A DNA stretch of 63,868 bases, the filler included, from Blastocystis sp. subtype 4 (taxonomy: Eukaryota), in assembly GCF_000743755.1 (NCBI RefSeq). It is 12 parts of 12 records of this genome, joined end to end, with 100 filler letters (N's around TTAATTAATTAA, not from the genome) between each part and the next. Parts side by side here need not be neighbours in the genome. Positions count along the whole stretch, not along the records: positions 34,148 to 39,044 come from NW_014569062.1; 11 more parts are not named here. One strand, given 5' to 3'. Under the pieces are notes generated by a model that was given only the letters and a program-made list of their open reading frames with translations, had not been told where the DNA came from and searched no databases. Positions 5,956 through 59,989 of the stretch are shown one piece after another. The position numbers and the translations under genes are program-made. Within the stretch, counting starts at the first letter, position 1. Each line of letters begins with the position of its first letter.

Positions 5956-5984
5956 CTATACATCTTACAATGAACATTTTCAAT

Positions 5985-6692: not shown

Positions 6693-6734
6693 ACAATAAC
6701 CCTTCCTTCATTGTCAACAAATAAGTCCAGTTTA

Positions 6735-9480
6735 CTAGAATACTTCACAACAACTATCATTCTTTAGTTGATTTGTGTTCCTCTGTCTTATGAAACGATC
6801 AAGAGAATCAGCATCTCAATGATTATTCATTATTCAATCACACTTGAACTATGCAGTTTATTCACACGGCCGAATGCACAATCCATCTGAATTCCTTCTT
6901 CAGTGAGTGATGGAATGTCTAATTCAAATTCAATATTATATCATACTCTCCAGTATCACTTTTCCCATATTCAATAAATTGTCACCATCTCCTTTGAGTG
7001 TAGATAAAGAAGGAAGATCTAGTTTTTCAATCATGCTCTTTCATACTCTTCATTATTAGTTGATTTGATTTTCTAGTGTCCCATTTACCTCTAAGAGACT
7101 CATATCCTAGAGTGATAGATTGAAGTTGAATCAAATCTCATTCATTATTCCATCATCAATGATACTCTCAAATACAATAGAATAACAATCATTGAATGCT
7201 TCTCTTCCCAATTCTATCATGTTGAGAGAAGGGAGATTAGACAAAATGAATCTTTCTTTTCCTACTCTCCCTTGAATAATAATGGATTTAACAGAACATA
7301 TTAGTTCTTCCATTTGACTGCTATCTGAAATCCAGAATGCAGATGTTTGATGTGATATCACGTTATTTGACGGAACTACTTCATTATTATTCTTGGTGAT
7401 GTAGTATTCAAGAGAATCAGCATCTTAATAACAATATAGTCTTTTTTTGTACTTGAACTGTCCATTTCTTTCACATAACCAAATGATCTTCTCATCTGTA
7501 TACTATCTTTAGTGAGTGATGGAATGTCTAATTCAAATTCAATTATCGATAATCACTATTCAATTGCACTTTGCCTATCCTTTCTAAACTGTAATAATCT
7601 CCTTTGAATGTAGATAGAGAAGGGAGATCTAATCAATCAATCATAATTACCATTCATACTTTTCATTATCAATTCATTTGTTTCTACATTACCATTATCA
7701 CCATATAGAGCCTTATTTCCAAGAATGATGGATTGAAGTCGAATCAGATCTCATTTATCATTCATTCAATCATTCATACTATCAAATACTATCCATTTAC
7801 AATTACAGAATGCACAACGATCTAATTGAATGGATATGAGAGAAGGTAGATTCTTCAATTCAAATGATTTATACCAATAGAATGATCCATCTTCAATGTG
7901 GATTTCACTCAATTGATCACAATTCATTATCACACATTTGCTTCCAATTCTATTACAGCAAATGAGTTCAAAGCTTTTCTTTCCGATGTACAATTTCTGC
8001 AATTCATTCAATCCATCAATCACAAATTGATCCATATTCTTAAAACAATCATTTCCAATCACAAGTCTCTCAATTCCATTCAAACAGTCAACATCAAATC
8101 CACTAAAATAATTTCCATATCCATCTTCAAATCGTTTGGTTGAAGCATATGCTCCTTCGATCCATCTTCCACTTCTAATCACTTCTCCATTCTCATTCAA
8201 TTCCTTTCCAGCTCCATGTCTCAATCCATTCTTCCATTCTCCAATATACGCAGCAGAGTATCCTTTGAATTCACTTCCATATCCTTCTCTCTTTCCATTC
8301 TTCCATCCACCTACATACAATGCACTCTTTCCATCATCTCCATATTCTTTACCTTCTCCTTCTCGAACAAATCCTTTCATATCTCCTTCAAATCCTCCTT
8401 CATATACTCTCATTCCATTATCATCATATTCAATCATACATTCTCCTTTCCATTCTCTCAATACTCTCATCATTACTCCATTCTTGTATTCACATTCTCG
8501 AACCATTCTTCCTCCTTCATACTCAAAACACTTACCATTCTTCAATAATCCAGATTCATCATATTCACTCACACTCAACAAATCTCCATTCATATTCACT
8601 TCTTTGAAGAATCCATCCATTCTTTCCATTTCAGGATGAATCACAAATCCATTCACCATATCTCCAAACCATACTCCTTCATACACCTTCTTTCCATTAT
8701 CATCAAACAATATCATTCTTCTTCCAATGAATTCTCGAATTACTCTCTTCATTCTTCCATTCTCATATACACATTCTCTCTTCAAGTGTCCTGATTCCAC
8801 TTCAAAACATATCCCATTCTTCATCCACTTATCATCATATTCACTCACACTCAACAAATCTCCATTCACACTTATCTCTGAATAGAATCCCTTCATTCCT
8901 TCTTGTTCTTTCAGTGCTACATATCGCTTTCCATTTTGATACAATCCTCTCCACACCTCATTTCCACTGTTATCATATTCTATCCACATTCCAACTTCCT
9001 TTCCTTTTGATACTCTTCCTTTCAATACTGTGTTTCCATACTTATTCATCTTGGTCACTTCTCCTTCACATTCATCATTCACAAACATCATTCTCATAAA
9101 TAGTGTTCCATCTTCTCTCACAATCATTCCAATTCCTTCTTTCTTTCCTTCATTCATTGATACTACCAACTCATATACATCATTATCTATCAATAATCCA
9201 ATAATTTCGTTTCCATTCAATTCATCACCATTCTTTACTTCAATACTCCTTATCTCACAATCACCAAGGAATTCAAGACATGAACTACTATTCCTAATAT
9301 CGATGTTACTCATATCAGTCTAAGAATCAATGAACAATTCATTACCCTTCATATTAATGAATTCATAATGAATATCATATGGAAGGAGGTTGACAATGAT
9401 TATCACTCATTCTATCCATATTCAACCATTCTATTCATATTCATCATTCCATTCCATTCATCTAATCTCACAATCAATCT
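6735..9480 (-). CDS. MORN-repeat plus BspA-like LRR protein, multi-exon, C-terminal CCEVF
   Basis: YEGGFEG/YVGGWKNGKREGYG MORN repeats in the 515-aa ORF, followed by LPSLISI-type LRR exons; start approximate. Confidence 0.8.
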
Positions 9481-10312
9481 TTTCATCGCATCATTCAATC
9501 ATTCATTCCCGTGATTCTAATCAGTTTATATCATTTCACATTACAATCAATCAAACATCAATACTAATTCTGTCATCATTCTTACCACAATTCGGATCCC
9601 CAATTACGCCATTCCACATTAGCCCATTTCATTCATTTCAATCCACATTCACTTTCATTCATATCTCATTATTCTACTATATTCTACTATCATCTCTTCA
9701 TTCCTATTCAATATTACTGAATACAATCACGGGGATATCATTCTCATCATTCATTACTCATATCATTCATTTCTTATTTCCATTTATATCTACACTCTCA
9801 TATCATATCAATTCTATTCATATCTCATCATCCATCAACATCACTTTGTTATCATTTCATTAATTCATATCTGTTGATTTCAATAGCTTTTGGAAGTTAT
9901 ATTCTCATTATGATTTCTAAGATTGAGCTGACAGAACTAAGGAACACCCTTCATGAATGATTTCCATGTAAAGAGTGTTGAAATGGCTGATTCAACAAAA
10001 CATGAAGAAGGAAATGCAGTGATTCTGTTTTCAGGAAAGCATGAAGGATACAAGATGAAAGTGAATTTGAAGAAAGGAATAAAGGGAAGGGAGTGATGTA
10101 TCGAGAGAACAATACAGTGTTTATGAAACCCTGATTTGTGAATGATATAGCAGAAGGAGAGTTCACAGAAAGGGATAGATAGGACTGTGATAAGGAAAGA
10201 ATGTTTGTATGANNNNNNNNNNNNNNNNNNNNNNNNNNNNNNNNNNNNNNNNNNNNTTAATTAATTAANNNNNNNNNNNNNNNNNNNNNNNNNNNNNNNN
10301 NNNNNNNNNNNN

Positions 10313-15302: not shown

Positions 15303-15491
15303 AATGAAAAAGATAATAAAAAGAGAGTATGTTTAAATAGTAGTTGATGTTATAAGGGGATTAAGGGGTAAAGATACTAGTTGATTAATGTNNNNNNNNN
15401 NNNNNNNNNNNNNNNNNNNNNNNNNNNNNNNNNNNTTAATTAATTAANNNNNNNNNNNNNNNNNNNNNNNNNNNNNNNNNNNNNNNNNNNN

Positions 15492-15615
15492 AGGAGTTCG
15501 TATGAGTGATTTGCGTTCGGTTCAGTTTGATGTGCGTGATCGTCATGGTGAAGTAGTATCAATCGCTTCAGACATCTACATCAACATCCGATTGAATGTG
15601 AACGGAAAGGTTTAA
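15492..15615 (+). CDS. C-terminus of Polinton/PLV-type minor capsid (penton)-like protein
   Basis: GVRMSDLRSVQFDVRDRHGEVVSIASDIYINIRLNVNGKV*; homologous to 29965-30085, 46330-46677 and 49590-49942. Confidence 0.6.
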
Positions 15616-15648
15616 TTTAATCTACGATTAAATAGCTGCTATGCAGCT
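15615..15648 (+). terminator. Double hairpin directly after the penton-like stop codon
   Basis: ATTTAATC-TAC-GATTAAAT then AGCTGC-TAT-GCAGCT; a terminator role is inferred only. Confidence 0.4.
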
Positions 15649-15689
15649 TAATGGGAAGGTTTAAGCTGTTGATTATTCACTTTGTGTGA

Positions 15690-16514
15690 GGAGTAGTTTT
15701 GGAGTAGGTTCAAAAATACAACCTACTCCACATTTCATTCAAAAAGGCTCATTAAATGGCTTATTTATAGGGATTAAATCATTTTGGAGTAGGAGGAGTA
15801 GGAAGAGTAGGTTGAAAATTCAATTTGACAAAATGTTTTGGTAGAATTCTTCTTAAGAAATAGAAAACCAACCTACTCCAACATCAAATAATCCTCATAA
15901 TCAAGCTAATTTATGGGCTATTCTAAAGGAATTTGGAGTAGGTTTGATATTTGAGACTACTCTTGAAACCTACTCCAAGTTTCTCCAACCAATATGTAAT
16001 CGATTATACTAATCCCTAATAACAAGGATATGTTGAATAGTTGCTCCGCAGTTGCTCTGCAACCATTGATCTTTGATCAATTCGTTTAATGTGTTAAACT
16101 CCAAATTCTCCACTTCACTTCATTTCTCAAAAGTCTTTAAAGATCGACACCCATGCCCATTTATCAACACCCTTAAAACATCCTGCTAAATCTATTTGTT
16201 ACCCCATAATAAGTACCGATTATATTCTTGCATATATAACTGAATACAATCATGGTACTATTGAGTCATTACTTAACAACTATCTCCCGTATTTCTATTC
16301 AGTTATATGAACACCAAAATTAGACCATATTTTGGTCACAGTTTTAGCGTTTGTTCGTCACCCTGTTTACGGCACCATCATTTGTGTCAGAAAGTTTGTT
16401 TTACTTTGTTCATACCATTTAACTGATTACTTAACCATTTTGCACACATTTATTGCGTCAGCTCAAGGAGGTGCGGCGCCGCGCCCTCCGCAGAGCATGC
16501 ACGGCCTCAGGCCT
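15690..16514 (+). mobile_element. Repeat A copy (GGAGTAGG iteron array + terminal GC hairpin)
   Basis: Many GGAGTAGG/CCTACTCC words; ends GCGTCAGCTCAAGGAGG...GGCCTCAGGCCT. Confidence 0.9.
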
Positions 16515-16657
16515 CAACTCATTTTAATGTAACATTCGTCAATTACTACTTGAATAAAAGTGTCTGGGTTAAGTAGCTGTATGATTCTTATTGTTAATGT
16601 GGCAATCAATTACTCTCACAAAACAGAAGAATAACTCAGGATACTACTTCAACACTC

Positions 16658-19745: not shown

Positions 19746-19844
19746 GAGGCAAATTAATTATGACCATTCACTGGTTCTTAATAATTTGTTAATACTTCCG
19801 CGGATATATCACTCATTCAGAATCATCCAATCATCAGTGTCAAC

Positions 19845-19870
19845 AGTAGTAGTAGATTGACACATGTTAC
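19845..19870 (+). mobile_element. Repeat C terminus (Polinton-like AGTAGTAG end) at an insertion junction
   Basis: AGTAGTAGTAGATTGACACATGTTAC matches AGTAGTAGTGTTTTGACGCATGTTAC at 43938. Confidence 0.65.
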
Positions 19871-19871
19871 A

Positions 19872-20640
19872 AGGCCTGAGGCCAAGTATGCACCTCCTTG
19901 AGCTGACGCAACAAATGTGTGCAAAATGGTTAAGTAAACAGTCAAATGGTATGAATAAAGTAAAACAAACTTTCTAATACTAATGATGGTGCAGTAAACA
20001 TCGTGACGAACAAACGCTAAAACTGTGACCAAAAATTTGGTCTAATTTTGCTGTTCATATAACTGGATAGAAACACGGGAGATGGTTGTTAAGTAATGTG
20101 TCAATAATACCGTGATTGTATTCAGTTATATACGCACGAATTTATTTGGAGTTTATTATGGGGTAACAAATTGATTTAGCAGGATTGTTTTAAGGATGTT
20201 GATGTTTAAAGACTTTTGAGAAATGAAGTAAATTGGAGAATTCGGATTATTCAACCAATGGATGATACCATTGTTATTAGGGATTAGTATAATCGATTAC
20301 ATATTGATTAGTTCATTATGAGATTAACAATAATGGAGTAGGTTTCAAGAGTAGTCTCAAATTTCAAACCTACTCCAAATTCCTTTAGAATAGCCCATAA
20401 ATGAGCTTGATTATGAGGATTATTTGTTGTTGGAGTAGGTGGAGTAGGTTGGTTATTCTATTTCTTAAGAATTCTATCAAAACTTTTTGTCTAATTGAAA
20501 TTTCAACCTACTCTTCCTACTCCTCCTACTCCAAAATGAATGAATCCTATAATCAAGCCATTTAATGAGCCTTTTTGAAGGTAATTTGGAGTAGTATTTT
20601 TGAACCTACTCCAAAACTACTCCAAAACTACTCCAACAAA
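19872..20640 (-). mobile_element. Repeat A copy, directly downstream of the primase-helicase gene
   Basis: Inverted homolog of 15690-16514; hairpin partly deleted. Confidence 0.9.
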
Positions 20641-20694
20641 TCATGATTATATAAAGCATAGCTTCCAAAGTAAAATAGAATCACATATTCATTA

Positions 20695-23600
20695 TCAAAC
20701 TTCACAATCACATACATGCAACAAGTTATAGACCACAAGATTATTACATTTTGTCGGACATTTTCTTATATACTGTGGATACTTCGATAGTTCTAACATG
20801 AATGATTTTGCACTTAGTTTATATCCATTATGATAGCTGCAACAGTAACTGTTAAACGCTTGTCCCAGACTTTTTGCAGGAATCATATATCCCTCAGTAA
20901 TGTATCTGATTGCTCTTCTTTGCTTATATTTTGACGTACAATACACATCAATCTCCGTGTCATCTTCAGATAATTGTTGAAGCCATTCTTCAACTGGATC
21001 AACAGATGCATCAATAATGTTCTGCATATATTCAGTGTCTTGGATTTCCAAGATATCTTCATCTGTGTATCTGACTTTGTTAAAGTAATTGTACAAACCA
21101 TGGCTGCTTCTTCCAAACATCGATTGTCTTAGCAAAGAAAGGCTGAGTGATGTATTGATCAGGCATGAAGTTTAAAGCACTAAATGCATTAATTCGAGCA
21201 TTACCATTAGCAACATCAAATGAAAATCCATTTGCATTGTTTGTTGTAGCAATGATTCGACTACGCATTGTGTATGTATAAGCTTGAATGTTCTTTCTGT
21301 TAGCAACCCTGTGTTTAGTACCATCAATGTAACTCTTCATCACATCAACGATATCTTTGCCAAATTCGGAAGCACGAGCTTCATTGATGTTCACAAGCAA
21401 TGTATTCTCAAATGGAACTCGATGAGCTCCAAGCAAATCATCCCTATTATTACATTCAACCACATATTCATCACCAATTATCTGACTGATCATTTTGATC
21501 AACAATCCTTTGCCTTGTCTGCATCTACTGTAGAATAGAATGCCAACAGGCAACAAATTAGCAGGATCTTGAATCATTTGAGCTACAAACTTCTTCACAT
21601 ATTCACAATATAATATATCACCAGAAATGTTGAGCATTGCCAAGATATAGATTCTCATGAATATAGGATGAAAGTTGATGTACATCTTCATCTGATCTGT
21701 TAACGCAGGAATCATGTCCATGAAATCATTGATCATAGGTACATATTCAGATAGATCAGGAACAGGATCAGTTGAACGAATATCTGGATTGTATCCTTTG
21801 AATGTGTTAAGCACTTTCTCACCAGTTGAAGGATCTCGTATCACTTCAACTGAACCACCACCAACTTTGTTGCATGGAATGAAATCTGCTCTGTTAGCAA
21901 CTCTTCTGATATTGAAATATGCATTGATAGCATCAATAGTTGGTTCTTTTGGTCCCTTGATGTCTTTGTCTTCGAAATATGATCTTGTCCCATAGATCTT
22001 ACCGATATTCTTCCATGTACCAACAATATCACTGTTTCGTTCAATATGTCCATTCACATAGCATGAATTGACAGGCGTTTGTAAGAACACAATTCGCTGT
22101 GATAGATAGCTCTTAATAATACTGATTGTCTTATTTCTATCTTTCCTATACTCATCTTCACTATCATAAGCACCAACACCTGGCTTCTTCATGTATCTCT
22201 TACAGATCTTCATTAATACCCAATCCTGAACAATCGGAAGATCTGCATCTCCACGCATGACCTCAGTATCATCATCAATTTCGTCATCACTGAAATCACA
22301 AATCGCATTCAAATCATATCTTCCATATTTCTCAGAACAGAAATCATCATAGAATGAAGGATTTGTATCTTTCACAATCTTCATCACAGTACCCATTGTA
22401 TAGATTTGATCTCGATCTGTCTTATATCCATTGTAGTATGTTTGTCTGAATGAATCAATATCATTGTTCTTAGGACGTCCAATGATTTGATTCCATTTCT
22501 CACAAACAATCTCATAACAGCCCATCCTTCATCATAATCATCTGTATCTTCAAAGTTTCTTGCAACTGCAGTGATTATAGGCAATTTGATTGTAGTATAG
22601 ATTCCTTCTGTAATAACACTGTAGTATAGATTCCTTCTGTAATAACACTATCAGGAATATGATCAAGCAGATCACGAACTTCTTTAACTGTGAACTTTTG
22701 ATGCTCTTCATTGTTTGATATTTCATCATGCTCTGTATTGTTTTTAACATCGTTAACACAGCTGTAAGCTGTGTTTAAAGATGGTTGTACTTGTTTGATA
22801 TTATCATTTGATGATGGAGGTTCAGGAAGTGTAAATCCTTCAGGAAGTTTAAAGGGTAAAATCTTGTTCTTATCAAAATCACTAAACACTGGTTGATCAG
22901 AATAATCAACATATTCATCTCTCAAAATGCAATCTGTGTATTTTGAATAATCAGCATCACCAAATTCTTTATCACCCAATTCAACGATATCAAATGATGA
23001 ACTAGTATAACTATCTTCTTCCATATCATAACATAGATACATATGACTTTCAGGCTTACAACTTCCATCTATCCAAAACACTCGTTTAGCGCCAAACATA
23101 CATTTATCAACAATTCTTTCAACATTGCCATAGAAGATCTTCTTAACTTCAATATCATTGATGATGTAGTTATATGTTGCTTCACGATGTTCATCATCTG
23201 TAAGTGCTTCAAGAATAATATGTGCTCCATGCTTATAGAGTTGCTTTGCAACATTTTGAGTGCTACTCAAATCTCCACATTGATATGGTGGTCTGATATA
23301 CAGATTGCTGTTGGTAGAGAACATTTCACACAATCGCTTATTGAATTGTTTGAATTGTTCTATTGGAACATCTTCAGATCCATTAGAATAATCCAGATCA
23401 ATACAAATCTTTCTTTTGCCTGTAAGAACAATACCAACAGCTACTGTATTTGTATATTCAATATCACAGTAATCTGCATGCCATTTGATAGCATACTGGA
23501 TAGATAGATTGTTGAAGAATTCATTCTTATCGTTTGGAACGTAAAATCCCATAGGGACTAGTTGTTTGTTGGGAGTACCATACCATACACACGAACATAG

Positions 23601-23758
23601 AATTGATGTTTATCTATTACAGTTTTTGGTTCACTCTTATAATAACATCCATTATTCCCATTTAAAAAGGAATGTAGATAATTAATTAGAGGATTTGCAA
23701 TTTGTTTTTCTTTGCTATTAGTAGGATTAATCGTTGTTCTATCAATTGTATCGCTCAT
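20695..23758 (-). pseudogene. Viral-type AEP primase - SF3 (D5-like) helicase - C-terminal winged-helix fusion, about 1000 aa, intronless, at least four frameshifts
   Basis: KICIDLDY, KHGAHII, VDKCMF..WIDGSCKP (AEP); VLNTFKGY, SRCRQGKG (Walker A), VNINEA (Walker B), IIATTNN (motif C); IPAKSLGQAFNSYC..SAKSF. Confidence 0.85.
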
Positions 23759-23859
23759 TTACTTATAGTGGAATAATCTATTAATTGATTATTTCACTTA
23801 GAATTTGATGATTTAGTTTTGATTCACAAAGTGACTGCAAATCTATGATTTGCTGGGTA

Positions 23860-24008
23860 GTTAGTGTAGTAGTTAGTATAGTAGGTTACAAAGAAGTAGG
23901 CTACTACACTTAATCCCTCATAAACAAGCTTGATTATGGGGGTATTCTTTAATTTATGAGGGTTTAACTGACTTGTTTATGAAGGTGTAGTAGGTGTAGT
24001 AGCCTGTT
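23860..24008. promoter_or_regulatory. Second iteron array (GTAGTAG type) upstream of the primase gene, cut by contig end
   Basis: GTAGTAGG/CTACTAC words around the scaffold CCTCATAAACAAGCTTGATTATGGG shared with repeat A. Confidence 0.6.
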
Positions 24009-24108
24009 NNNNNNNNNNNNNNNNNNNNNNNNNNNNNNNNNNNNNNNNNNNNTTAATTAATTAANNNNNNNNNNNNNNNNNNNNNNNNNNNNNNNNNNNN
24101 NNNNNNNN

Positions 24109-25870
24109 CCATTCATATCCAGACGGGCTCGCATCCTCACAATAGCTTCTGATAGATCTCCATAGATCTGATAGCAAGTCTCACGCCGATACAACTCGAA
24201 ATTACGAGCAAGGTAATCATGGAATGAGAGGAATTGAAGATTCAACTTTGGAAGTGCTGTTACAGTGCTTGTAGGAACTAGAGATCCACTCCAAAGAGTT
24301 TGTTCATCAGGAAGGAGAGAGAGAGAATTGATAGAGTCAAGTGGAGTATGAGGAACACAATATTCACAGGCAAAGATCTCCAATAACAGTTCCTCATTCA
24401 ATTCTCCTGATCCTGATGCAAACAGATCATTACTGGATTCAATAGTGCGTTGATTCATTGGTGGAACCAATCGTAAATGAATAGCAAGTGAATCCAAATC
24501 TTTGAAAGAGAGACGACGAAGTTGATCCATGAGAGTAGTACGAGAAGCGATATGATGCACTGAAGTCAAACATAACTCTTCCAACACTTCTGGATAGTAT
24601 CTATCAGTCATGATTTGATTCAAATCTCACTTGTACACAACATTCTGGAAGATGAGCATCTTCTTGTAATAATGTTCACTCGCTTCTTCTTCTGATAAGG
24701 CTTCACCAGTCACTTCATCGATTGCATAACTCTCATAATACGATAAACTCTCTGTTAGATCCCATAACAGACTGCGCTCAACATACATAGGACTCAGATG
24801 GAGACGAGGAAGGACTTGACGATCTTTCAGATACAGCAACAGATAACGTCGGGTAGTAATCTGTGTTAGCAATTCAACGAATAATTCCACAATACTACAT
24901 ACGATATTCTCATGAGTCTTATCGTCAAGGAGATGGAGAAGCACATTCACAAGGAAAGGGAAGAAATTGGAATTACGATCTGTTGGAGTGGATGACTGAT
25001 AGTGAGTTGCAGCAGAAAGCGATTTGAACAAAGCATGACCAGTACGAAGAGTCTCGCTAGGATCCTCACGAATAGCATCATTGAATTCAGAGAGATAATT
25101 CTCAACACTCTCAGACTCTTTCTCGAACTTTGCTGAGTTCAAATGTTCCAACAGACCCAATAGACTTCGTTTCACTTCATACATTTCCCAGGTCACCTTC
25201 AGACGAGGATTCCGATTCAATTCGAGAATACGACGACGACTGTGAACATGACTCCAAAGTCGCAAATTACACAATGGAACCAATTGACGACGAATGCAAT
25301 CAATCTCAAATGACTACAAATCAACAAACACCAACAGAGTCACTCGAAAAGCATATTTGAAGAAAGCAATATAGACAGGAAATTGCTCGAGAGTGACCTC
25401 TTTGTTCAAAAGCATATCGATCACTTTGGAGAAGAAAACGCCAAACTTGGCTTCATCGTTTAGAACAAAACCCCAACCTAGTGGATTATACATCTGAACT
25501 CATCTATATACCAAAAACACCTTCATCAAGTTTGTCAACAATCAACTCAACAAGACGAAATACTGCATCATTATCAGCATTCTCTGAGAATTGACTCCAC
25601 AATTCAATTTCCATTTCACAGTTTGGAGTTGAGGAGAGTTGATTAGTGATTGTGAGAAATGGAAATGAAATGAATGAAATTATCTGATACAAGTGAATGG
25701 AGAAGAGTGATATGGATAACGAGAAAAGAGTTGGAAATGAAATGGGGAGTTCAACTCAATCAAAATGGAAGTATCGACATCTTTCCAAACCATAGCAATG
25801 TTCATTTCTTCAAATTCAATAATGTCTCCCTACAACAATGGTTTTCAAGCAGCATAATGATACCCTGTTG
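24109..25870 (-). CDS. AQR: RNA helicase Aquarius (IBP160) N-terminal part, 3' partial
   Basis: LPKLNLQFLSFHDYLARNFELYRRE, FVELLTQITTRRY, YAIDEVTGEAL; start approximate. Confidence 0.85.
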
Positions 25871-28666: not shown

Positions 28667-29136
28667 TAGGCATGATTGCGATTTGATGGATGTTTGTTTA
28701 GTAATAACTGTACAATCATTCGTGAGGATTTGATTATTAAGAGAGTCATTACTATTGATGATTATCATTATCTAAGAATTGGCAAATGGTACAACTAAGT
28801 GAGATCGTGTATTATGTATAGGAAGACTCAAACTCACCAATGGAGTTGACTGAGGGTATTTGGATCTGTATTTGGCTAATCCATAGAAGAGAAGCAGATT
28901 CTCGAAAAGAAGGCTGAAATGGATGCCACAAATGGAGAGACTAGTACTGAACTATCTCCTGTGGACATTGGCTCTGGTGTTTATCCCAAATCCTATTTCG
29001 ACTTGGAGAAGTATCCCACACATTGGAAGATTGTGANNNNNNNNNNNNNNNNNNNNNNNNNNNNNNNNNNNNNNNNNNNNTTAATTAATTAANNNNNNNN
29101 NNNNNNNNNNNNNNNNNNNNNNNNNNNNNNNNNNNN

Positions 29137-29964: not shown

Positions 29965-30085
29965 AGATGTACTGATATGAAGCGATGGACACTACTTCAC
30001 CATGACCATCACGCACATCAAACTGAACCGAACGCAAATCACTCATATGAACTGCACATACATTCAAATGACTAAACGAACATAC
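29965..30085 (-). pseudogene. Penton-like gene fragment
   Basis: Reverse complement of 15492-15580 (HMSDLRSVQFDVRDGHGEVVSIASY). Confidence 0.6.
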
Positions 30086-30826: not shown

Positions 30827-33800
30827 ATGTCTGGAGTCGGAATTGTTAGGCCAAAAACTTATAATGATTTAGTGCGTAAAGGCGTCGTCTTTTCTTTGAT
30901 GTCTAGCTCCGCCTAATTATGTTCCAGGACTTGGACGCGGTGCTAGAGGATTTGTTACACAGTAGTTTTTTTGGGTATTAGAGTGGTAATTTTCAGATCG
31001 GACATTGGACCCGCTAATGCTGTTGAATCTGTTTCTTTTTTGTCGTAGCATTGAAAATTAGACACAACCAGGAATGATGGCAAGTGCTGTAGCCAATATG
31101 GAAGAAGGAGGAAATTATGATTCCTTTACTGGACCACAAGAAAGTATTTTTGGGTATGAACCTATTTGAAGTGATACTGTAGGAATACTCCTTATGATGA
31201 CGATGATAAAGAGGCAGATCAGATTTATGAGCAGGTAGATGCTAGAATGAAGGAAAGAAGGGAAGATCAGCGTCAAAAAAGAGAAAAAGCTCGCATTGAG
31301 ATGCTATATGATGAACATATGGATCAGCAACGTCAATTTGAAGATTTAAAACGTGGATTGGCATCAGTAACAATGGAAGAATGGAATAATCTTCCTGAAA
31401 TCGAAGATAAATCGCTCAAACGCAAACGAGAAAAGGAACGAGAAATATATACTCCGGTTCCAGATTCTGTTATTGAAGCAAAGCGAATGCGTGATTCCAC
31501 TGAGATCTATCTTGATCCGCGACAGCAGGTGTTAGGTGGTTTTGAAACTCCCTCTGGAATAGCCTCAACTTCGTTAAGTGCTGCAAGAGAGAAGGTATGT
31601 TCAATATAGCAATAATAGTGTAGTTATTGTCTTTGAAACTCGATCATATGTCGGATAGTGTAAGTGGTCAAACAGTGATTGATCCCCGTGGTTATATGAC
31701 ATCTCTGAATAGTATGAAAAGTATCAGTGAGACAGAAATCGGTGATATCAATAAGGCGCGAGTCACTTTTCGAAGCCTCATAAATGCAGATCCAACTAAT
31801 CCACAAGGTTGGATAGCAGCAGCACGACTAGAAGAACAAGCTGGTAGTACAACGAATTTGTTCTTATTGTAGGCAAATTGACAGCGGCCAGGAAGCTTAT
31901 TAAGGAAGGATGTGAGAACTGTCCTAAGAGTGAAGCAGTGTGGTTGGAAGCTGTTCACTTACAGGATAAGGAGAATGGAAAGATTATTCTAGCTAATGCT
32001 GTTCAACAGCTCCCCAGATCTGTGAAGATCTGGCAAACTGCAGCCGATCTGGAAGATGATGTTGACAAAAAAAGGCGTGTATTGTGGCGGGCATTGGAGT
32101 TTATACCAAATTCTGTGGTACTATGGAAAGAAGCTGTGAGTCTGGAGAAGGAAGAAAGTGCGATATTGTTGCTGCGTCGTGCTGTGGAGCAAGTGCCTGA
32201 GTGTGTGGAATTGTGGTTAGCTCTCGCCAAGTTGGAAACTTATGAGAATGCTCGTAAGACACTGAATCGAGTATTGGTGTGAATGTTGATGAAGTGTAGG
32301 CACGTCTGGCTGTCCCTACGGAACCTTTAATCTGGTTCACAGCTGCTCAGTTAGAAGAAGCTAATGGAAGTATTCATCGAGTGGAGAGTATAATTGAGAA
32401 GTCAATCAAATCTCTTCGGAATAATGATGTGGTGATTGATCGAGAGAAATGGCTCCAGCATGCTTATGATATGGAGCGAGCTGGTGCTATTCAGACCTGT
32501 GGTGCTATTGTGAGGAATGTGTTGGGGATTGGAGTGGAGCCTGAAGATCGTCGTCGAACGTGGACCGATGATGGAGAGAAAGCCTTACGAGAAGGAGCCA
32601 TTGAAACAGCGAAAGCTATCTTTGCTTTCACGTTATCTTCATTTCCAAGTAAAGATGAATAAGAAGAATGAATGGATAGGTCGTGAGGATCTTTGGATTC
32701 GAGCTTATGAAATTGAGGATGATTTTGGCACAATGGAATCAGCAGAAGCTCTGTTACGTCAAGCAGTTCAAGCTTGTCCTGCTTCAGAACCTCTTTGGCT
32801 GCTTCTCATTCAATTGAAGTACAAGAAACAGAAGGATTGTGACGGTGCTCGAATTGCTGTTGAGGATGCTATGAAAGCTAATGTTTCCAATCCAGCCATC
32901 CTCAGTAGTGAGCGACTGTGGCTGACTGCTTTCCAAGTATATTTGGTTGGGTATGGTAATTGGTAGATTGAATGGGAAGTGAACGATTATGATCGGGCTC
33001 GATCTATCCTTCAGCGTGCAAGAGTTAATTGCTCTAGTGGGCGTGTTTGGATGAAGAGTGCTTTGCTTGAATGGGAAATGAACCATGATACTGAGGAACT
33101 CTCCCTGTTAACAGATGGTATTCAATCGTATCCGGAATATGCCAAGTTATATATGATGTTGGGACAGTATTATCAACAACATGATGATATTGATCAAGCT
33201 CGTAATACATATCGGTACTCATAGTGGATAACATTGTTACATTAGAAAAGGATTACTCAAATGTCCATTCTCTGTTCCTCTGTGGTTATTGTATGTTCGA
33301 TTAGAACGAGAATACACTTCTCTAACTAAAGCACGATCGCTTCTTGAGATTGCACGTCAGAAATGTCCTGATAGCGAGGATCTGTGGATTGAATCCATTC
33401 ATATGGAGCGAGACGCTAAGAATGAAGCTCTTGCGAACCAGCTCCTTGCAAAGGCTCGACAGACTCTTCCAACAAGTGGTAAGAATCAGGAGAGATGTTT
33501 ATTATCAGGGAGAATTTGGTCTGAGTCCATTATTACCATTCCCAAGATTCAACGTCGAACCTACATTTCCACTGCATTAAAGGAACATGAGGATGATCCT
33601 TATATCGTGATGGCTGCTGGAAAGCTGTTCTGGAGCATGCGAAAGAATGATCGTGCTCGTGTGTGGATGAAAAGGGCTGTTACGAAAAATCCTGATATTG
33701 GTGACTTTTGGGCCATTCTATATGTATTTGAACTTCAGAATGGAACCGAAAGTCAACAGAAGGAAGTCCTTCAGGATTGTGTCAAAGCTAATCCTCACCA

Positions 33801-33916
33801 TGGGGAAATCTGGCCTGTGATTCGGAAACAACGAGAGAATCGGAGAAAGACAACAACAGAGATTCTTAAACTGGTTGCTGATCAGTTAAAGGATTCGATT
33901 TTGGAGTTTTGTAATT
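30827..33916 (+). CDS. PRPF6: Pre-mRNA splicing factor PRP6 (HAT/TPR repeats), multi-exon; stop probably completed by poly(A)
   Basis: APPNYVPGLGRGARGF, DPRGYMTSL, GWIAAARLEE, PHHGEIW. Confidence 0.95.
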
Positions 33917-34147
33917 GGTATGTTTGTTCTTTTATCTTCACGTATATTAACAAACATTTCTACATTAGCTATCCTACAGACTCTTATCCTTTTCTTCTAA
34001 TCGTTTCTGGAATACAGTGATAATCTCGTTCAGCATATCTGGATTCANNNNNNNNNNNNNNNNNNNNNNNNNNNNNNNNNNNNNNNNNNNNTTAATTAAT
34101 TAANNNNNNNNNNNNNNNNNNNNNNNNNNNNNNNNNNNNNNNNNNNN

Positions 34148-36117: not shown

Positions 36118-36862
36118 TGTGATTGCGAAATTTGATAAGATATTTGTGATTCTATTTAACTATGATACTTGTGAATGCAAATCATAGATTACTAATGGAG
36201 TAGTGTTGGAGTAGGTTTGGAGTAGGTTCAAAAATACAACCTACTCCGGAATTCCTTCAAAATGGCTTATAAACTGGCTTGATTATAGGGATTAATTCAA
36301 TTTGGAGTAGGAGGAGTAGGAAGAGTAGGTTGAAGATTCAATTAGACAAAAAGTTTTGGTAGAATTCTTCTTAAGAAATAGAAAACCCAACCTACTCCAC
36401 CTACTCCAACCTACTCCAACATCATATAATCCTCATAATGAAGCTAATTTATGGGCTATTTGTAAGGAATTTGGAGTAGGTTTGAAATTTGAGACTACTC
36501 CTGAAACCTACTCCAAGCTACTCCAATCAAATTGTATCAATCATTACTGAATGCAATCACGGTATTATTGACACATTTACTTAACAACAACTGCTATGCA
36601 GCTATTTAATCTACGATTAAATCTCCCATATTTCTATTCAGCTATATGAACACCAAAATTATACCATATTTTTGTCACAGTTTTAGCGGTTGTTCGTCAC
36701 CCTGTGTTACTACACCATCTTTTAGTGTCAGAAAGTTTGTTTTACTTTGTTCATACTATTTGACTGATTACTTAACCATTTTGCACTCCTTCTTTAGCGT
36801 CAGCTCAAGGAGGTGCGGCGCTTGCGCCGCGCCCTCCGCAGAGCACGCACGGCCTCAGGCCT
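36118..36862 (+). mobile_element. Repeat A copy retaining the last codons of the primase-helicase (CDCEI*)
   Basis: TGTGATTGCGAAATTTGATAA matches the CDCEV* end at 20695; then iterons and the full hairpin. Confidence 0.9.
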
Positions 36863-37125
36863 CTTCACATACTCTATGCATCATATTCAACCGCCTTTCA
36901 TACCTAACTCTACATTCCATTCATATTCTGACAATACTGCAGGTTTCATCTCTCAGACACTCAGCTAAGCTTCAATTCTTATACTTCAATTCAAACCGCT
37001 TTCATCACTCATGCGAAATATACTATCCAATACTACAGATCTTACTCACAACTTGATCTCCACTAATACTTCGAACTTCATCCTTTCTATAATACCATTC
37101 AATTATACATCTTACTACTAATCAA

Positions 37126-37861
37126 ACCAACTTACCAAAATCGATAACTCAAATTGTACATGTCTTCTCACTTTCTTCAAAACACAGCTTTCTTTCATTC
37201 TTTCATATTTCATTCATATTCACATTTCCATTCTAATCATACTATCGATACGTCCTCACTCACACTTCTCTCTTTTCTCATCTGTTCTTATCTGTACTCT
37301 TCTATATTACCAACCTAATCATCTTAGGCTGGTTTTCAATTCTTCATTCCGTTCTTTTAGTCATCCCTTTCAATGATGGATTACCACTTCATTCACTTGT
37401 TGATAGTAGACAATCAGATTCACAGTACCTTATTCATAGACTTGATTGTTTTTAACTTTCCCGAGGAGACATCTTCATCTTATCAAGCTCTAATGTGTAT
37501 TCTTATTCTTCTCTATCATGTAAGAACTATGTTCTCTTGTGATGATTCTGGTATTCATCATCTACTCTCATTGAGACAATGTCTCTTTGAGAAGGGTGTC
37601 TCTTCGAGATACTCGGTCACCATTAGGACATAAGTTCTGAAGGTGAAATGGTACCATTCTCAGGGAAGCTTCGTGTTGCCAGGATGTATGGTTGATTTCA
37701 TGAAGAAAACACCCTACTATTCTCCAAGAGGAATAGTGGTTGGGTTCATGAGCTGTCAAGCAATCACTCGAGACTTGGACCACTTGGGAACGAGTCCGAG
37801 GCCTTAATGATATGGACGTTAAGTGCCCTCTAGGGCATCTAAGTAGTGTTTAAAGTGTTTA
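37126..37861 (+). repeat. Repeat B copy 3
   Basis: Homologous to 5985-6692. Confidence 0.9.
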
Positions 37862-38130
37862 CCCTCACTCTTTCCATCACCTAAACCTCATTTCTTTCTT
37901 ATCATATTATCCTTATTCATCATATGTCACACAATTGTTCTTCTGATTATATTCAACGAGTGAATATGTTGATAGAGCAAGATCCTGTTATTATGAAGAC
38001 TCGTTTTCTTCTCATATGGAGCATGACAATCAAGCAATATCATCACCGAGAAATGCCGAACAACATGAAATGGACTCAACAATGGTATGGCAACAAAGGC
38101 AAAAGAAATCATCCAAACAACCTAAACAAT

Positions 38131-39044
38131 CTACTCAACTAAATCCCACCTTGAATAGCCCCAAACCAACGCAAGTACAAACAACAACTTTAAGCAGATA
38201 ACCAAACAACTCTCCTTCTCCTCCTGTAGATACGCACTTCTTTGTCGAATGAATCGATCAAGACAATCAGCATCTCAAGATTATCAATCAATCAATCATA
38301 CTTGAACTATGCAATTCTCTCACTCTATTAAATCCCATGGAATACCCACGAATCCCTTCATTAGTGAGTGATGGAATGTCTAAGTTAAATTCAATCATCA
38401 ATTATCACTCTTCAATGTCACTTTGCCTATATGCCAGAAACCTCCATTGATCATTGATAGAGAAGGAAGATCTCATCAATCAATCATCACTATTCATTAT
38501 CAATTCATTTGATTCAGTAGTATTATAATCACAAGCTAATGCAATATTTCCAAGAATGATGGATTGAAGTTGATTCAGATCTCATTCATCAGTCATTCAA
38601 TTATTCATACTCTCAAATACTACAGAATGACACCAATAGAATGCCTCATCATCCAATTGAATGGATATCAGAGAAGGAAGATTCTTCAATTCAAATGATT
38701 CATACCAAAAGAATGAATTCTTCCCAATATGGATTTGTCTCAATCGGGCACAATTCATTAACAAACATTTGCTGCCTTCTCGATTATATTCATCAAGTTC
38801 AAAGCTCCTATCACCAATGACCAAACTCTCCAGTTCAGTCAATCCATCAATCACAAATCGATCTACTTCCGTAAAACAACCATCTCCAATGTCAATTCGT
38901 TTCAATGATATCAATGAATTGTTCAATATCAATGATGATATATCTGGAGGATTGAAATGATCAGCAATAATCAGAGATTCAATACAACTAGTAACAATCA
39001 ATTCACAATCATCAATCCATTTCATTCTCATATCATCATTAACA
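38131..39044 (-). CDS. BspA-like LRR family protein, 5' partial, C-terminal hydrophobic helix
   Basis: Paralogous to the LRR exons at 7400-8100. Confidence 0.75.
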
Positions 39045-39263
39045 NNNNNNNNNNNNNNNNNNNNNNNNNNNNNNNNNNNNNNNNNNNNTTAATTAATTAA
39101 NNNNNNNNNNNNNNNNNNNNNNNNNNNNNNNNNNNNNNNNNNNNAGGCAAATTAATTATGACCATTCACTGGTTCTTAATAATTTGTTAATACTTCCGCG
39201 GATATATCACTCATTCAGAATCATCCAATCATCAGTGTCAACACCATTATTTTCTTTTGCCTG

Positions 39264-42658: not shown

Positions 42659-43270
42659 TAAACACTTTAAACACTACATAGATGCCCTAGAGGGCAATTA
42701 ACGTCCATACCTGCGTAGGCCTCGAACTAGTTCCCCAGTGGTCCAAGTCTCGAGTGATTGCTTGACAGCTCATGAATCCAACCACTATTCCTCTTGGAGA
42801 ATAGTATAGTGATTTCATGATGAAATCAACCATACGCCCTGGTAACACGAAGCTTCCCTGAGAATGGTACCATTTCACCTTCAGAACTTACGTCCTAATG
42901 GTGACCGAGTATCTCGATGAGACACCCTTCTCAAGAGACATTGTCTCAATGAGAGTAGATGAATACCAAAATCAACACAAGAGAACATAGTTCTAACATG
43001 ATAGAAAAGAATAAGAATACACATTAGAGCTTGAGTAGATCAAGATGTCTCCTCGGGAAAGTTAAGAACAATCGAGTCTATCAACAAGGTACTGTGAATC
43101 TCATTGTCTTCTATCAACAAGTGAATGAAATGGTAATCCATCATTGAAATGGATGACTAAATAAACGGAATGAAAAAGTGAAAAAACCAACCTAAGATGA
43201 TTAGGTTGGTAATATAGCAGATTGTAGAGAAGAGTATAGATGAGGATAGATGAGGATAGATGAGAAGAGG
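42659..43270 (-). repeat. Repeat B copy 4, abutting (TTTAGGG)2
   Basis: Reverse complement of 37270-37861. Confidence 0.9.
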
Positions 43271-43394
43271 AAAAGATATAGGAGGCATTGATTTGAATCT
43301 CCTATAGTAGATGAATGTATTTTGTTGGGTATAAGGGTATATAAAGAGTACATAAAGAGATACAGGATAAGGAGACGAATGAAGTTATGCAGGG

Positions 43395-43937
43395 AGGCCT
43401 GAGGCCGTGCGTACTCTGCGGAGGGCGCGGCGCAAGCGCCGCACCTCCTTGAGCTGACGCAATAAATGTGTACAAAATGGTTAAGTAAACAGTCAAAATG
43501 GTGTGAACAAAGTAAACATACTTTCTGACACTAAAAAGATGATGCAGTAAACAGGGTGACGAACAAACGCAAAAAATGTGTGACCAATAATATGGATTAT
43601 CTTTGATGTTCATATAACTGAATAGAATAACGGATATAAGGGTTTAGTATAATCGAAACCATATTGATAGGGAGTAGCTTGGAGTAGGTTTCAGGAGTAG
43701 TCTCAAATATCAAACCTACTCCAAATTCCTTACAAATAGCCCATAAATTAGATTCATTATGAGGATTATTTGATGTTGGAGTAGGTGGAGTAGGTGGAGT
43801 AGGTTAGATTTTCTATTTCTTAACAAGAATTCTATCAAAAACTTTTGTCTAATTGAATTTTCAACCTACTCTTCCTACTCCTCCTACTCCAAAATGAATT
43901 AATCCCTATAAATAAGCCATTTTATGAGCCATTTATG
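43395..43937 (-). mobile_element. Repeat A copy, truncated by repeat C
   Basis: Full hairpin 43395-43460 plus iterons. Confidence 0.9.
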
Positions 43938-44022: not shown

Positions 44023-44122
44023 NNNNNNNNNNNNNNNNNNNNNNNNNNNNNNNNNNNNNNNNNNNNTTAATTAATTAANNNNNNNNNNNNNNNNNNNNNN
44101 NNNNNNNNNNNNNNNNNNNNNN

Positions 44123-48436: not shown

Positions 48437-49489
48437 ATGGAAAGAGTAGTATTGAACAATGGAATAGCCATTCCAGCATTGGGACTGGGGTATTAACTTG
48501 GTTGTGCTTGTGATTTTCAGAACATATCTTTCTAAAGAGAATTCGTGTGCTTTGGCTGTGGAAACAGCTATTAAGGACGGATATCGTCTAATTGATACTG
48601 CTGTATCGTACTGTAATCATAAAGAGATTGGAAGCGCTATTCAGAAGTGTATTCAAGAAGGGGTCGTTAAGAGAAATGATTTGTTCATTTGTACAAAGTT
48701 ATGGTTATGTGATTGGCATAAGGAAGATGTTCCAATTATTGTGGATAGAATATTGAATGAGTTGCAAACGGATTCTATTGATCTACTTCTGATTCATCAT
48801 AGTGTATTGTTCAATCTCCCTCCTGAAGAATATGAGAAGCGAAAGAAAGGCCTTCCTTGTATGAAGATTCCAGATGATGATCCGAAATATCGTCTTGGTT
48901 ACAACATTGAGAATTTGAAGGAGTTGTGGGGTGCTATGGAAGGTGTCTGTAGAGAGGTGAGGATCATTGGGTTGGAGTGATGATTAGGGTAAGGTTCGTT
49001 CGATTGGAGTATCGAACTTCTCGGGCAAGCGAATTCGTGATTTGATGGAGTTTGCTACAATCAAGCCTGTAGTGAATCAGGTTGAATTGCATCCATATTT
49101 ACAACAATGGGAAGTGAAGGAAGTATGTGATAGATTTGGAATCTACTTGATGGCTTATTATCCTCTTGGGGGTCAGCAGGGTACTCGATGCCTTGATTCT
49201 TACAATCTTCTGGAAGATCCCACCATAGTGAATATTGCAAAGACTCACTCCAAGACATGTGCTCAAGTGTTGATTCGATGGGCCATTCAACGAGGAACGA
49301 TTTGTATACCCAAATCTGTTACTCCAAGTCGAATTGCTGAGAATATGGCTGTGTTTGATTTCTCATTAAGTGATGATGAAATGACAGCTATTCGAGGCAT
49401 TGATAAAAGGACTCGCTTTGTGCGAATTGGTGTATTCTTACCGAGTCCACAGACATGGAAAGATTTGTGGGATGGAGAATATGTAGATT
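48437..49489 (+). CDS. Aldo-keto reductase; stop probably completed by poly(A)
   Basis: LNNGIAIPALGLG, GYRLIDTA, TKLW, NQVELHPY, IPKSVTPSRIAEN. Confidence 0.93.
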
Positions 49490-49589
49490 GGAGTGTTTGT
49501 TCTATTGATAGCAATGTGGGCCTCAGTTGAGAATGAGTCTGTACATATTCTAATATCAGGACGCACACATGATTATCGGCAACAACAGT

Positions 49590-49942
49590 AAATGTTTGAA
49601 GCGATTGATACTACTTCATCATGACGATCACGCACATCAAACTGAAACGAACACAAATCACTCATACGAACTCCTGGCATGTTCAAATGACTAAACAAAC
49701 ATTGTTCAATCCCATTGTTGAGTAGATCATACAATCCACTAATGGACTTGTTTCAAATGATATCATCTGCTTTACCAGATTACTGTAGATTCGAATCCAG
49801 TTCAATCCATTTGATAGATCTACTGGTTCTCTTCCTTTCACACCACTTGCCTGAATCTCATCAAATCCCAATATTCGACTCAAATCAGGTGCTTGTTGAA
49901 ATACTAGATCATAAGCAGGACCAGAAGGATGTGGATATCCAT
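49590..49942 (-). pseudogene. Penton-like gene fragment (best preserved)
   Basis: APDLSRILGFDEIQASGVKGREPVDLSNGLNWIRIYSNLV...VRMSDLCSFQFDVRDRHDEVV. Confidence 0.65.
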
Positions 49943-51021
49943 NNNNNNNNNNNNNNNNNNNNNNNNNNNNNNNNNNNNNNNNNNNNTTAATTAATTAANN
50001 NNNNNNNNNNNNNNNNNNNNNNNNNNNNNNNNNNNNNNNNNNGTTCAAGTGGGGAGCGAAGAAACTGAACTATGTGGTATTGATGAAAGTAATCTATCAC
50101 GAATAGACATTGTTGAAGAAGTATGCTCCGTTGATGGCCTTGGCTATTTTTGTTGTGATGGTTCTCTACTTCCGTTTCCGATAGATTGTTTTGGTTTCAT
50201 TGTTTGATTGATCAACAGAACAGAATGATGAACTTAGCTATGAATCCTTTTGATAGCGTGATAATAGAGGGAGCAGTTCAATGTTCACATCTGTCGATGG
50301 ATGGTCGGAAAGAAAGTACTTTTCGATAACAGAATCATCCATTCCCCTATCGCAACAGGAAGCATCGGCAGTTACTCGAAGAAATGGGTGATTCCATGGG
50401 TGATTGGAAAGCGGAAGACAGTGATCACAAATGTAGAAATGAGGACATTGAATGCACTCTAATAGTATTAGAGAAGGTGGAGTCTTATGGCACTACACAT
50501 AAACGCACTGTTCTCAACAAACAAGAGAGCACGCATGGTTGTGAAGCACCTTATTCTTGCGCTTTCCATGTCTACCATTCAACAGTCTCAACACAACTAC
50601 TTCAGACTTCTTCTGGATTGATCTTGTCGAGTATAGGCACTCCACAGACGCTACAGATGATGTGTATCGCTCTATATTGTACGTTTACAATATTCTCAGC
50701 ATTATAAAGGAAGTGAGTAAAGTGATCGACACTACAATGAAGCCATTCCGCACCCTTACAACTGTGAATCATTATGTTCCATCATATGTTGTCGATTCTA
50801 GGTAATATTCTGACGGCATATGTACTATTTCCAGAGTAGGTCGAAGGATCTTTGTGGAATGAGCCCGTGCAGTTTCAGTATCAGGCATGAGTAAAGAAAA
50901 GAAAGAAAGTGTCACAGTGATAATTCATATCCTTTCAAGTGATATACAATAATAGACACCCCTAGCAAATCTCCACATTCACAAATCATCTTAATATCAA
51001 TACCAAATAAGAAAAAGAATA

Positions 51022-54700: not shown

Positions 54701-55260
54701 AACCCTTTTCTACTTTTGTCAGCTTCTGTTTGTTCTACTGTATTCAATACTATAATATTTGTTTTTATCAAGTCCAAAACTGCGATATCGATTTGAGGGG
54801 ATCCCCCATATTCGATATAGTGAATCCAAACTCATAGAACCTTGTATCACGAAATGNNNNNNNNNNNNNNNNNNNNNNNNNNNNNNNNNNNNNNNNNNNN
54901 TTAATTAATTAANNNNNNNNNNNNNNNNNNNNNNNNNNNNNNNNNNNNNNNNNNNNAGATTCAACAAATCCTGTAGAATTGACACAATCCATCCAATGAC
55001 AAAAGAAGAAGGTATTTTGGTGATAGAATTGGGAGTGTTTTGGGAATCAGAAGATATCTTAGAGATGTGAGAAATGCGTTGTTGGAGTGGTAGATAGTAA
55101 TCAAAATAGGTTCTGAGTTTGGTTACTGATCTCCATTCACAACTAGCTTTGATCACTGAAATAGTCTCTCTTTTTGGAAGTAATAACAAATAATCCCCAA
55201 CTTTTTGGAATTGCATAAACCCAATTACATCACTTTCGTTTGTACATCGTTGAATTGAGT

Positions 55261-59511: not shown

Positions 59512-59989
59512 TGATTATTATCACTCTACAATGCTGTAGAACACAAGAGAATGAACATTTCTTTAGTAAAGAGAAGATAAGAGTGTAATATTACGAATCA
59601 AAACAACATATGAATCTCTTCAAATGAAATGGTTTCAACAGAATCAGTAGTTATCTATTGAATCATGAATTGTCTGGTTTCTGTGTTTTTCTTATTAGTG
59701 ATTCTGTTCTATTCTTCTATCTATCNNNNNNNNNNNNNNNNNNNNNNNNNNNNNNNNNNNNNNNNNNNNTTAATTAATTAANNNNNNNNNNNNNNNNNNN
59801 NNNNNNNNNNNNNNNNNNNNNNNNNAGCAGCGTGCTTTCATGGGACTGAGACAAGCTCGTTGTGATGCTCGTAACTATGGACGTCGTCTGAAGCGTGCTA
59901 GTGAGGCTGAGGAAGAGAACTAAGGAGTGTGGAATAAGGACAATGATATTGTGTTTGTGAAGAAACAACAGACATTGCTTTGAGCGATT

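Follow-up and report, generated by a model that had tools for sequence, protein, structure and literature searches.

The double hairpin at positions 36797–36862 is best understood as the outermost tip of a mobile element of ∼4.2 kb that carries a gene for a D5/C962R-type primase-helicase, with the hairpin likely acting as an end signal of folded DNA. We place this reading at somewhat better than even (a probability of ∼0.55). The window, i.e. the whole 63.9-kb stretch of DNA that was analyzed, consists of 12 assembly pieces (4.0–8.5 kb each) that are joined by eleven identical 100-nt spacers. Each spacer is composed of 44 N, TTAATTAATTAA, and another 44 N, and they are located at 5071–5170, 10213–10312, 15392–15491, 24009–24108, 29037–29136, 34048–34147, 39045–39144, 44023–44122, 49943–50042, 54857–54956, and 59726–59825. 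Because the window is a concatenation, features that span a spacer have no real adjacency. Window ORFs match the CDC20, Hsp70, aquarius, PRP1/Prp6, guanylate-binding protein, and He_PIG surface-protein families, one tRNA-Asp is present, and the window, judged by its sequence, is eukaryotic nuclear DNA.

Structure and exact terminus of the double hairpin

The sequence that had been quoted for the double hairpin is found at 36797–36862. Its large imperfect palindrome (36797–36848, plus strand) is 52 nt long and is built of three stacked helices, with a bulged C, a T·G pair, and CA, AA, and GCA internal loops. In the stems, GCGT pairs with ACGC, GCTC with GAGC, and GGAGG(T)GCGGCGC with GCGCCGC(G)(C)CCTCC. 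In this copy, the mini-hairpin GGCC-TCA-GGCC begins two bases after the large palindrome and is followed by TC (36851–36863, plus strand), position 36863 being the last base of the element. A search with GGCCTCAGGCCT (≤2 mismatches; 1.06 matches expected by chance) returned 10 matches that correspond to exactly six hairpin sites in the window, four of which were read on both strands. All six copies contain both the 52-nt imperfect palindrome and the mini-hairpin, in agreement with the sequence-only reading. The palindrome is the sole GC-rich part of an AT-rich arm and is placed exactly at the terminus, and its asymmetric bulges have one orientation relative to the terminus in all 23 copies. 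Over the window, Rfam at gathering thresholds identified only the tRNA-Asp and no family at the hairpin.

Folded as single-stranded DNA, the 36797 copy reaches −22.1 kcal/mol (z = −2.89; 2 of 200 shuffled sequences were equally good), and the minus-strand copy at 43394 reaches −20.5 kcal/mol (z = −2.62). The most diverged copy, at 5271 on the minus strand, has an unchanged architecture and a folding energy of −17.8 kcal/mol (z = −4.46), which none of 200 shuffles equaled. All of the substitutions that had been listed for this copy (GCAT/ATGC, GGAAGC/GCTTCC, ACGGC/GCCGT, and GGTC/GACC) are present, as are both of those listed for the copy at 5890 (GCAC/GTGC and GCAGT/GCTGC). Weaker folds were obtained for the copies at 16455 (z = −0.48) and 5890 (z = −0.55), for locus L025 (z = −0.49), and for the deleted copy at 19872 (z = +0.16); the first three, out of nine distinct ends, do not fold better than shuffles. 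Hairpin-tip deletions had been described for the 16455 and 19872 copies. The former indeed lacks seven tip bases, but the loss at 19872 is not confined to the tip, since ∼29 nt that comprise the inner stem and the whole 3′ arm are missing. Locus L011, which comes from another assembly, has the identical deletion.

Pairing was counted over nine distinct ends, of which six are window copies and three are loci, a small and related sample for which shuffle controls overstate significance: 96.0% of 199 cells are paired (shuffles averaged 92.1, with 1 of 500 reaching the observed value), and both sides have changed in 7 of 24 pairs (shuffles averaged 2.5, again with 1 of 500 reaching the observed value). 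Among the both-side changes is a T-A/A-T swap that divides the sequences 4 versus 4. The covariation score is 0.197, compared with 0.134 in shuffles, none of which scored as high (0/500), and when the 3′ partners were slid by 1–3 columns, only 30–53% of cells were paired. The proposal that structure rather than sequence is kept is borne out by these nine ends, in which the fold with its asymmetric bulges is retained through both-side changes. The paired changes could also come from templated repair inside the palindrome. Wobbles had further been taken to favor DNA over RNA. Both kinds do occur, but the argument is weak, with 14 G·T versus 6 A·C cells; the non-Watson-Crick cells also include 2 of other kinds, and a clear strand bias is absent. 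Counted as independent events in our own reading, the wobbles amount to roughly 7 G·T versus 5 A·C, and several A·C cells belong to copies with a different fold or with a deletion.

When metagenome contigs were scanned with a tip pattern of 20 letters, 27 stretches were obtained, 17 of which carry the element, the other 10 being GC-rich chance matches. All 17 loci end at the identical base (...GGCCTCAGGCCTC). Similarly, all window copies end after AGGCCTC, with T as the last base in the 19872 copy. There are 16 distinct junctions after this end, six from the window copies and 10 with new flanks from the 17 loci. Four pairs of loci share a site (L018 with L005, L014 with L013, L026 with L021, and L027 with L020), and several loci occupy window sites, namely those of the copies at 19872 (L011), 43394 (L013 and L014), and 5890 (L025). 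Contigs over 36540–37140 diverge at 36863/36864 in four of four runs, with differing continuations. Summed contig depth, which is not a copy number here, is much greater within the unit than in the adjoining sequence.

The statement that homology among the ends stops at AGGCCT(C) holds generally (17/17 loci, 16 junctions), but three paralogous copies share DNA downstream. Homology past AGGCCT, which was looked for as the case that speaks against this statement, was found only in the copies at 5890, 36797, and 43394, where the shared DNA starts directly after the end, ∼240 bp on, and ∼140–180 bp on, respectively. Homology seems to resume in these copies because a ‘B/C’ repeat follows their tips at different distances. 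This second repeat family is 71–90% identical between 5957–8074 and 37104–38906, and is also found at 42659–43250 (minus strand). An unrelated repeat abuts the element end at 36864–37104 (plus strand) and is absent from the paralogous junction at 5957. It is not clearly a diverged duplicate of the start of the downstream repeat, as the global alignment score is 49 versus 46.4 ± 5.1 for shuffled sequences and 89 of 300 shuffles score as high.

No target duplication was found at 5270–5956, the sole two-ended copy, which is old and has diverged arms (flanks ...TTAATGA and TATACAT...). NNNN-CAT directly follows ...AGGCCT(C/T) in the flank of 6 of the 16 distinct junctions, compared with ∼2% per site estimated from base composition. 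Such junctions are located at 36864–36871, 5957–5964, 43386–43393 (minus strand), 16516–16523, and 19863–19870 (minus strand), and in locus L003, and they may reflect a weak target preference. In locus L012, a truncated tip (120 bp) is joined to sequence that matches the window from 13937 onward with 98% identity, the left side of the window there being unrelated. The left side of L012 is itself rearranged, with a gene start 16 nt away, so this locus yields no clean empty site or target duplication. A 99-bp stretch in the flank of the 19872 tip (19747–19845) is 100% identical to the first bases of another piece (39145–39243), which probably reflects overlap in the assembly graph or else a very recent duplication.

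Inverted-repeat arms and the primase-helicase gene

Repeat A, to which the sequence-only reading had assigned the hairpin, is not free-standing. It is the outer ∼245 bp of a terminal inverted repeat of 0.5–0.84 kb, hereafter unit A. From inside to outside, the arm is composed of module M, unit A, the 52-nt palindrome, GGCC-TCA-GGCC, and TC. Module M comprises arrays of one 8–9-nt motif in both orientations, and the motif is specific to the subfamily, with three flavors at homologous positions: a-type (GGAGTAGG), b-type (GTGTAGTAG), and d-type (GTGACGG(GT)). In b-type arms, GTAGTAG cores occur 6–7 times forward and 4–5 times in reverse. The spacer sequence between the arrays is, in our own reading, recognizably related in a-type and b-type arms. 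By analogy, the arrays resemble iterons to which the protein of the element itself would bind.

In the solo arm that ends at 36863, unit A spans 36621–36863 (plus strand) and the inner part is an a-type module M at 36206–36536 (plus strand), with GGAGTAGG and CCTACTCC arrays in both orientations. A 32-bp insert between M and A (36577–36620) contains two small palindromes, GCTGCTATGCAGC-like and TTTAATCTACGATTAAA-like, and these recur in reverse order at 15620–15660, just outside another arm. Another unit A copy (43394–43634, minus strand; hairpin 43394–43460, M 43635–43934) lies on a piece other than that of the 36797 copy. The apparent 36797/43394 inverted pair is an artefact, as the 100-nt spacer between pieces lies within it, and the idea of cargo capture by inverted pairs of A around GBP genes was dropped because of this artefactual pair. 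The only inverted pair of A on a single piece is 16455/19872, the right member of which is part of the gene-bearing copy. Its left member is the copy at 16282–16515 (plus strand; shortened hairpin 16455–16515, M 15690–16021). The gene-bearing copy has an a-type left arm at 19871–20712 (minus strand), with a crippled hairpin at 19871–19909, unit A up to 20083, and M at 20275–20712. Its right arm begins with b-type M (GTGTAGTAG and CTACTACAC arrays) at 23820–24008 (plus strand) and is cut off by the end of the piece. The two-ended copy at 5270–5956 is a 687-bp miniature, in which unit A on the minus strand (5270–∼5480) and on the plus strand (5717–5956), with hairpins outward, flank a core with the d-type motif (GTGACGG/CCGTCAC) and without the gene. 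Each remaining copy in the window is either a solo arm or truncated at the end of a piece.

Mosaic copies are found among the loci: L005 and L018 share an identical 553-bp flank and differ in their arms, and a difference between L013 and L014 lies immediately ahead of the hairpin. The orthologous ends at window position 5890 and in L025 differ at three of eight tip bases. A dispersed repeat was observed at 15492–15633, 29978–30083 (minus strand), 49588–49702 (minus strand), and bases 1–100 of L019. In the window, it adjoins the inner edge of an a-type arm on the inside, as it does for a b-type arm in L019, and it may be the internal part of a non-autonomous relative.

The layout of the b-type element is given by two loci. 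Bases 3–80 of L018 encode residues 988–1013 of the protein P0004, and M, A, and the hairpin come next on that strand. Bases 82–2 of L021 encode residues 1–27 of P0004 on the opposite strand, and M, A, and the hairpin run the other way. The arms of the two loci are 96.07% identical over 509 columns. These gene ends and matching arms therefore define a b-type element with the order hairpin-A-M, gene, M-A-hairpin, a length of ∼4.2 kb, and hairpins at its extreme tips, its two ends being taken from different contigs and not from a single molecule. The P0004 gene encodes 1013 aa and abuts both arms, with nothing else between them. The 90% cluster of P0004 has 368 members, and the contigs that carry it are ≤3.7 kb.

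In the window, the arm (19871–20712) is followed by the gene (23758–20698) and by the start of the second arm (23820–24008). The gene (20698–23758, minus strand) is 99% identical to P0004 over residues 1–882 and 63% over the last 140. The 63%-identical part (20698–21129 on the minus strand versus residues 874–1013) lies beside the a-type arm, and the other arm is b-type. This gene copy is chimeric, and its C-terminal domain may be what recognizes the motif arrays. Three minus-strand ORFs adjoin the 19872 copy on one piece, one of them with a DUF5906 match. The reading frame of the window gene is broken near 23582, 22611, 22513, and 21129, and these four breaks may be assembly errors. Host genes at 31175–34017, 48468–49527, and 24109–25313 (PRP1/Prp6-like, aldo-keto reductase, and aquarius) are split over several stop-to-stop frames, which suggests indel errors of the assembly or small introns. 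Since host genes in this assembly are equally broken, the broken frames in the gene of the element need not indicate a dead gene. The hairpin of the gene-bearing window copy is crippled, so an intact hairpin is not needed for persistence in the genome.

A search for relatives of the protein gave 20 full-length proteins of 916–1025 aa. The only Pfam match is PF19263 at residues 733–832 (E = 1.4e-8), and in our reading of the translation the N-terminal domain contains the AEP-like motifs ICIDLD, HGAHII, and VDK...IDGSCK. The AlphaFold model is mediocre (mean pLDDT 59, pTM 0.35). Its best Foldseek matches are the full-length ASFV PrimPol chains (8iqh and 8iqi; E = 5e-10, probability 1.00), with TM values of 0.15–0.22 to the Foldseek matches. 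A sequence-profile search of the PDB with the protein gave no match, and its look-alikes in the Atlas are viral DUF5906/PriCT_2/AEP_C962R clusters. The protein is predicted to be D5/C962R-like, with an N-terminal AEP primase and a C-terminal SF3 (DUF5906/D5) helicase. The family is narrow, as only 7 representatives in 1.84 billion reach E = 1e-30 and further matches cover the helicase core only. Neither Pfam nor structure matching detected an integrase, transposase, nuclease, or HUH domain in the protein, no transposase ORF was found in the 63.9-kb window (17 and 58 ORFs scanned), and a collection of viral contigs contained neither the tip pattern nor relatives of the protein.

Proposed mechanism and alternative explanations

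The P4 α protein of satellite phage P4 binds its ori/crr iterons. By analogy, the primase-helicase would bind the motif arrays of the element as an origin and would then unwind the arm. The GC-rich palindromes could extrude as hairpins that mark the boundary of the element, where copying might end or be primed or where a structure-specific nuclease might cut. Since the element encodes no integrase, host repair or the enzyme of another element would have to join copies to a new site. Such an element would represent an undescribed eukaryotic class with a single gene, for an NCLDV-type primase-helicase, iteron arms, and hairpin tips, which moves without a transposase, integrase, or HUH nickase of its own. 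We put this forward as a tentative proposal, jointly with origin-directed copying in which the extruded tip hairpins would be a boundary and processing signal, a part that is equally tentative. A role at the DNA level is the more economical reading because the same sequence is found, facing outward, at both tips of an inverted-repeat element. A structure-specific role of the DNA is favored since the fold is located on both tips, exactly at the junction, with its asymmetry in one orientation.

If the fold acted in RNA, it could be the 3′ end or terminator of the primase-helicase transcript, or the precursor of a small silencing RNA. This would fit the stop-codon side, on which the gene, M, A, and the hairpin share one strand (L018), and the excess of G·T over A·C cells (14 to 6), and transposon-matched small RNAs are described for Trichomonas vaginalis in an excerpt of PMC7845603. 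However, the same sense-strand fold is present at the other tip, away from the gene (L021), where no such transcript would be expected. In addition, A·C cells are present (n = 6), an Rfam family match is absent, and an 835-nt contig passes through the hairpin into the flank (run X7, only guessed to be RNA), so that we regard action in RNA as improbable. Run X18, which is on record as RNA, contains no contig over unit A. It is also unlikely, in our estimate, that the palindrome is functionless and kept by templated repair or strand switching between the arms and by gene conversion among copies. The mosaic copies (L005/L018 and L013/L014) do indicate frequent conversion, the orthologous ends at 5890 and in L025 differ at those three of eight tip bases, and three ends fold no better than shuffles. 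Nevertheless, arm-to-arm copying should erase or invert the bulged C, the T·G pair, and the unequal loops, which are found in one orientation in 23/23 copies, and the palindrome is the only GC-rich stretch of the AT-rich arm and stands exactly at the terminus.

The arms might instead be ordinary terminal inverted repeats that are cut and pasted by a transposase acting in trans, the primase-helicase being cargo or a replication aid. The palindrome would then be an enzyme binding site or have no role; the tip reads GAGGCCTGAGGCC. The absence of a recognizable integrase or transposase from the element is consistent with this, as is the existence of solo arms and of a miniature form, which resembles the situation in non-autonomous DNA transposons, and DNA transposons make up 25–33% of the genome in a species called related, according to an excerpt of PMC13735942. 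On the other hand, the two-ended miniature (5270–5956) lacks a target duplication, the 63.9-kb window has no transposase ORF, and the covariation keeps the fold and not the sequence, which is unusual for the site of a DDE transposase. We therefore assign this explanation a low probability.

A very improbable alternative, although it was our first guess, is that the hairpin is the 3′ terminal hairpin of a Helitron-like rolling-circle transposon. Like the hairpins of Helitron 3′ ends and of IS200/IS605, the one described here is GC-rich and imperfect and lies a few bases before a sharp, precise end without target duplication, and its fold counts more than its sequence. The 5′ extent is variable, with a higher summed contig depth over 36708–36863 than over 36624–36707. 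However, those systems have no inverted repeats and use HUH enzymes, whereas the hairpin here is located at both ends, within inverted repeats, and the gene encodes an AEP primase and SF3 helicase. The Helitron RepHel protein combines an HUH Rep with a Pif1-like SF1 helicase, and no Helitron/PIF1 family was found among the 17 and 58 window ORFs. Helitron ends, as described in an excerpt of PMC11417382, are 5′-TC...CTRR-3′ with only a 3′ hairpin (HLE1), or have 12–16-nt inverted ends with the hairpin after the right one (HLE2). Moreover, the part of PMC13735942 that includes Table 3 gives zero rolling-circle repeats for two T. foetus assemblies. The element differs from TC...CTRR and has ...GGCCTCAGGCCTC on both tips of inverted repeats of 500–840 bp. 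Geometry, protein, and termini all contradict a Helitron, which was therefore dropped.

Comparison with known systems and significance

In poxviruses and ASFV, short repeats are arrayed in the inverted terminal repeats, beside sequence that forms terminal hairpins. The arms described here also place short-repeat arrays beside such sequence, and the AEP primase and SF3 helicase architecture is common to both, ASFV PrimPol being the best structural match. In contrast to these viruses (>150 kb), the element is 4.2 kb long, has one gene, and is found integrated at numerous places in the chromosomes. The palindromes of the element are in-line sequences located within a few bases of the junction, whereas the virus ends are covalently closed, and flip/flop forms are absent among the 23 element copies. 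Replication starting from telomere hairpins is mentioned in an excerpt of PMC11296320. With parvoviruses such as AAV, the element shares branched palindromes on both ends, an SF3 helicase protein, and structure-specific recognition, which is proposed here. However, an HUH nickase domain was not found, and the N-terminal domain reads as an AEP primase. The element is double-stranded and chromosomal, with a palindrome of 65 nt at the tip of a 500–840-bp repeat, and parvovirus-style flip/flop is excluded because the asymmetric bulges have one orientation in 23/23 copies.

The phage P4 α protein is a primase-helicase of the DUF5906 kind, and P4 has octamer arrays in both orientations. In contrast to the element, P4 is a bacterial plasmid-prophage with an integrase and without terminal hairpins, and binding of the arrays is, for the element, a proposal by analogy. 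Polintons/Mavericks carry a protein-primed PolB and an rve integrase inside inverted repeats, are 15–20 kb long, and generate a 6-bp target duplication. They were rejected, as the element has a single 1013-aa gene, no PolB or rve was found among the window ORFs, and 5270–5956 has no duplication. Polinton-like viruses and transpovirons have terminal inverted repeats and a D5-like primase-helicase, as the element does, but they are 7–40 kb long and contain genes for capsid and packaging together with an integrase or recombinase. The capsid and packaging genes of a Polinton-like virus were not found here: both arms directly adjoin the primase-helicase gene, and the contigs are ≤3.7 kb. In an excerpt of PMC11296320, homologues of the primase-helicase are reported to be abundant in Trichomonas vaginalis and are guessed to be polinton-like.

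No description of a single-gene element with hairpin-tipped arms was found in searches of freely accessible full-text literature. To our knowledge, structured palindromes at the ends of mobile DNA always occur with an HUH nickase, a telomere resolvase, or a viral genome. Here, the hairpin caps a tiny chromosomal element, the sole product of which is a primase-helicase of the giant-virus type. If the element proves autonomous, eukaryotes would have an additional route of transposition that is driven by replication, and a small, tractable model would be available of how D5-type enzymes recognize origins and ends. In that case, it would also explain part of the large ‘unclassified repeat’ fraction in trichomonad genomes, as well as the many Trichomonas primase-helicase homologues that are noted in the excerpt of PMC11296320.
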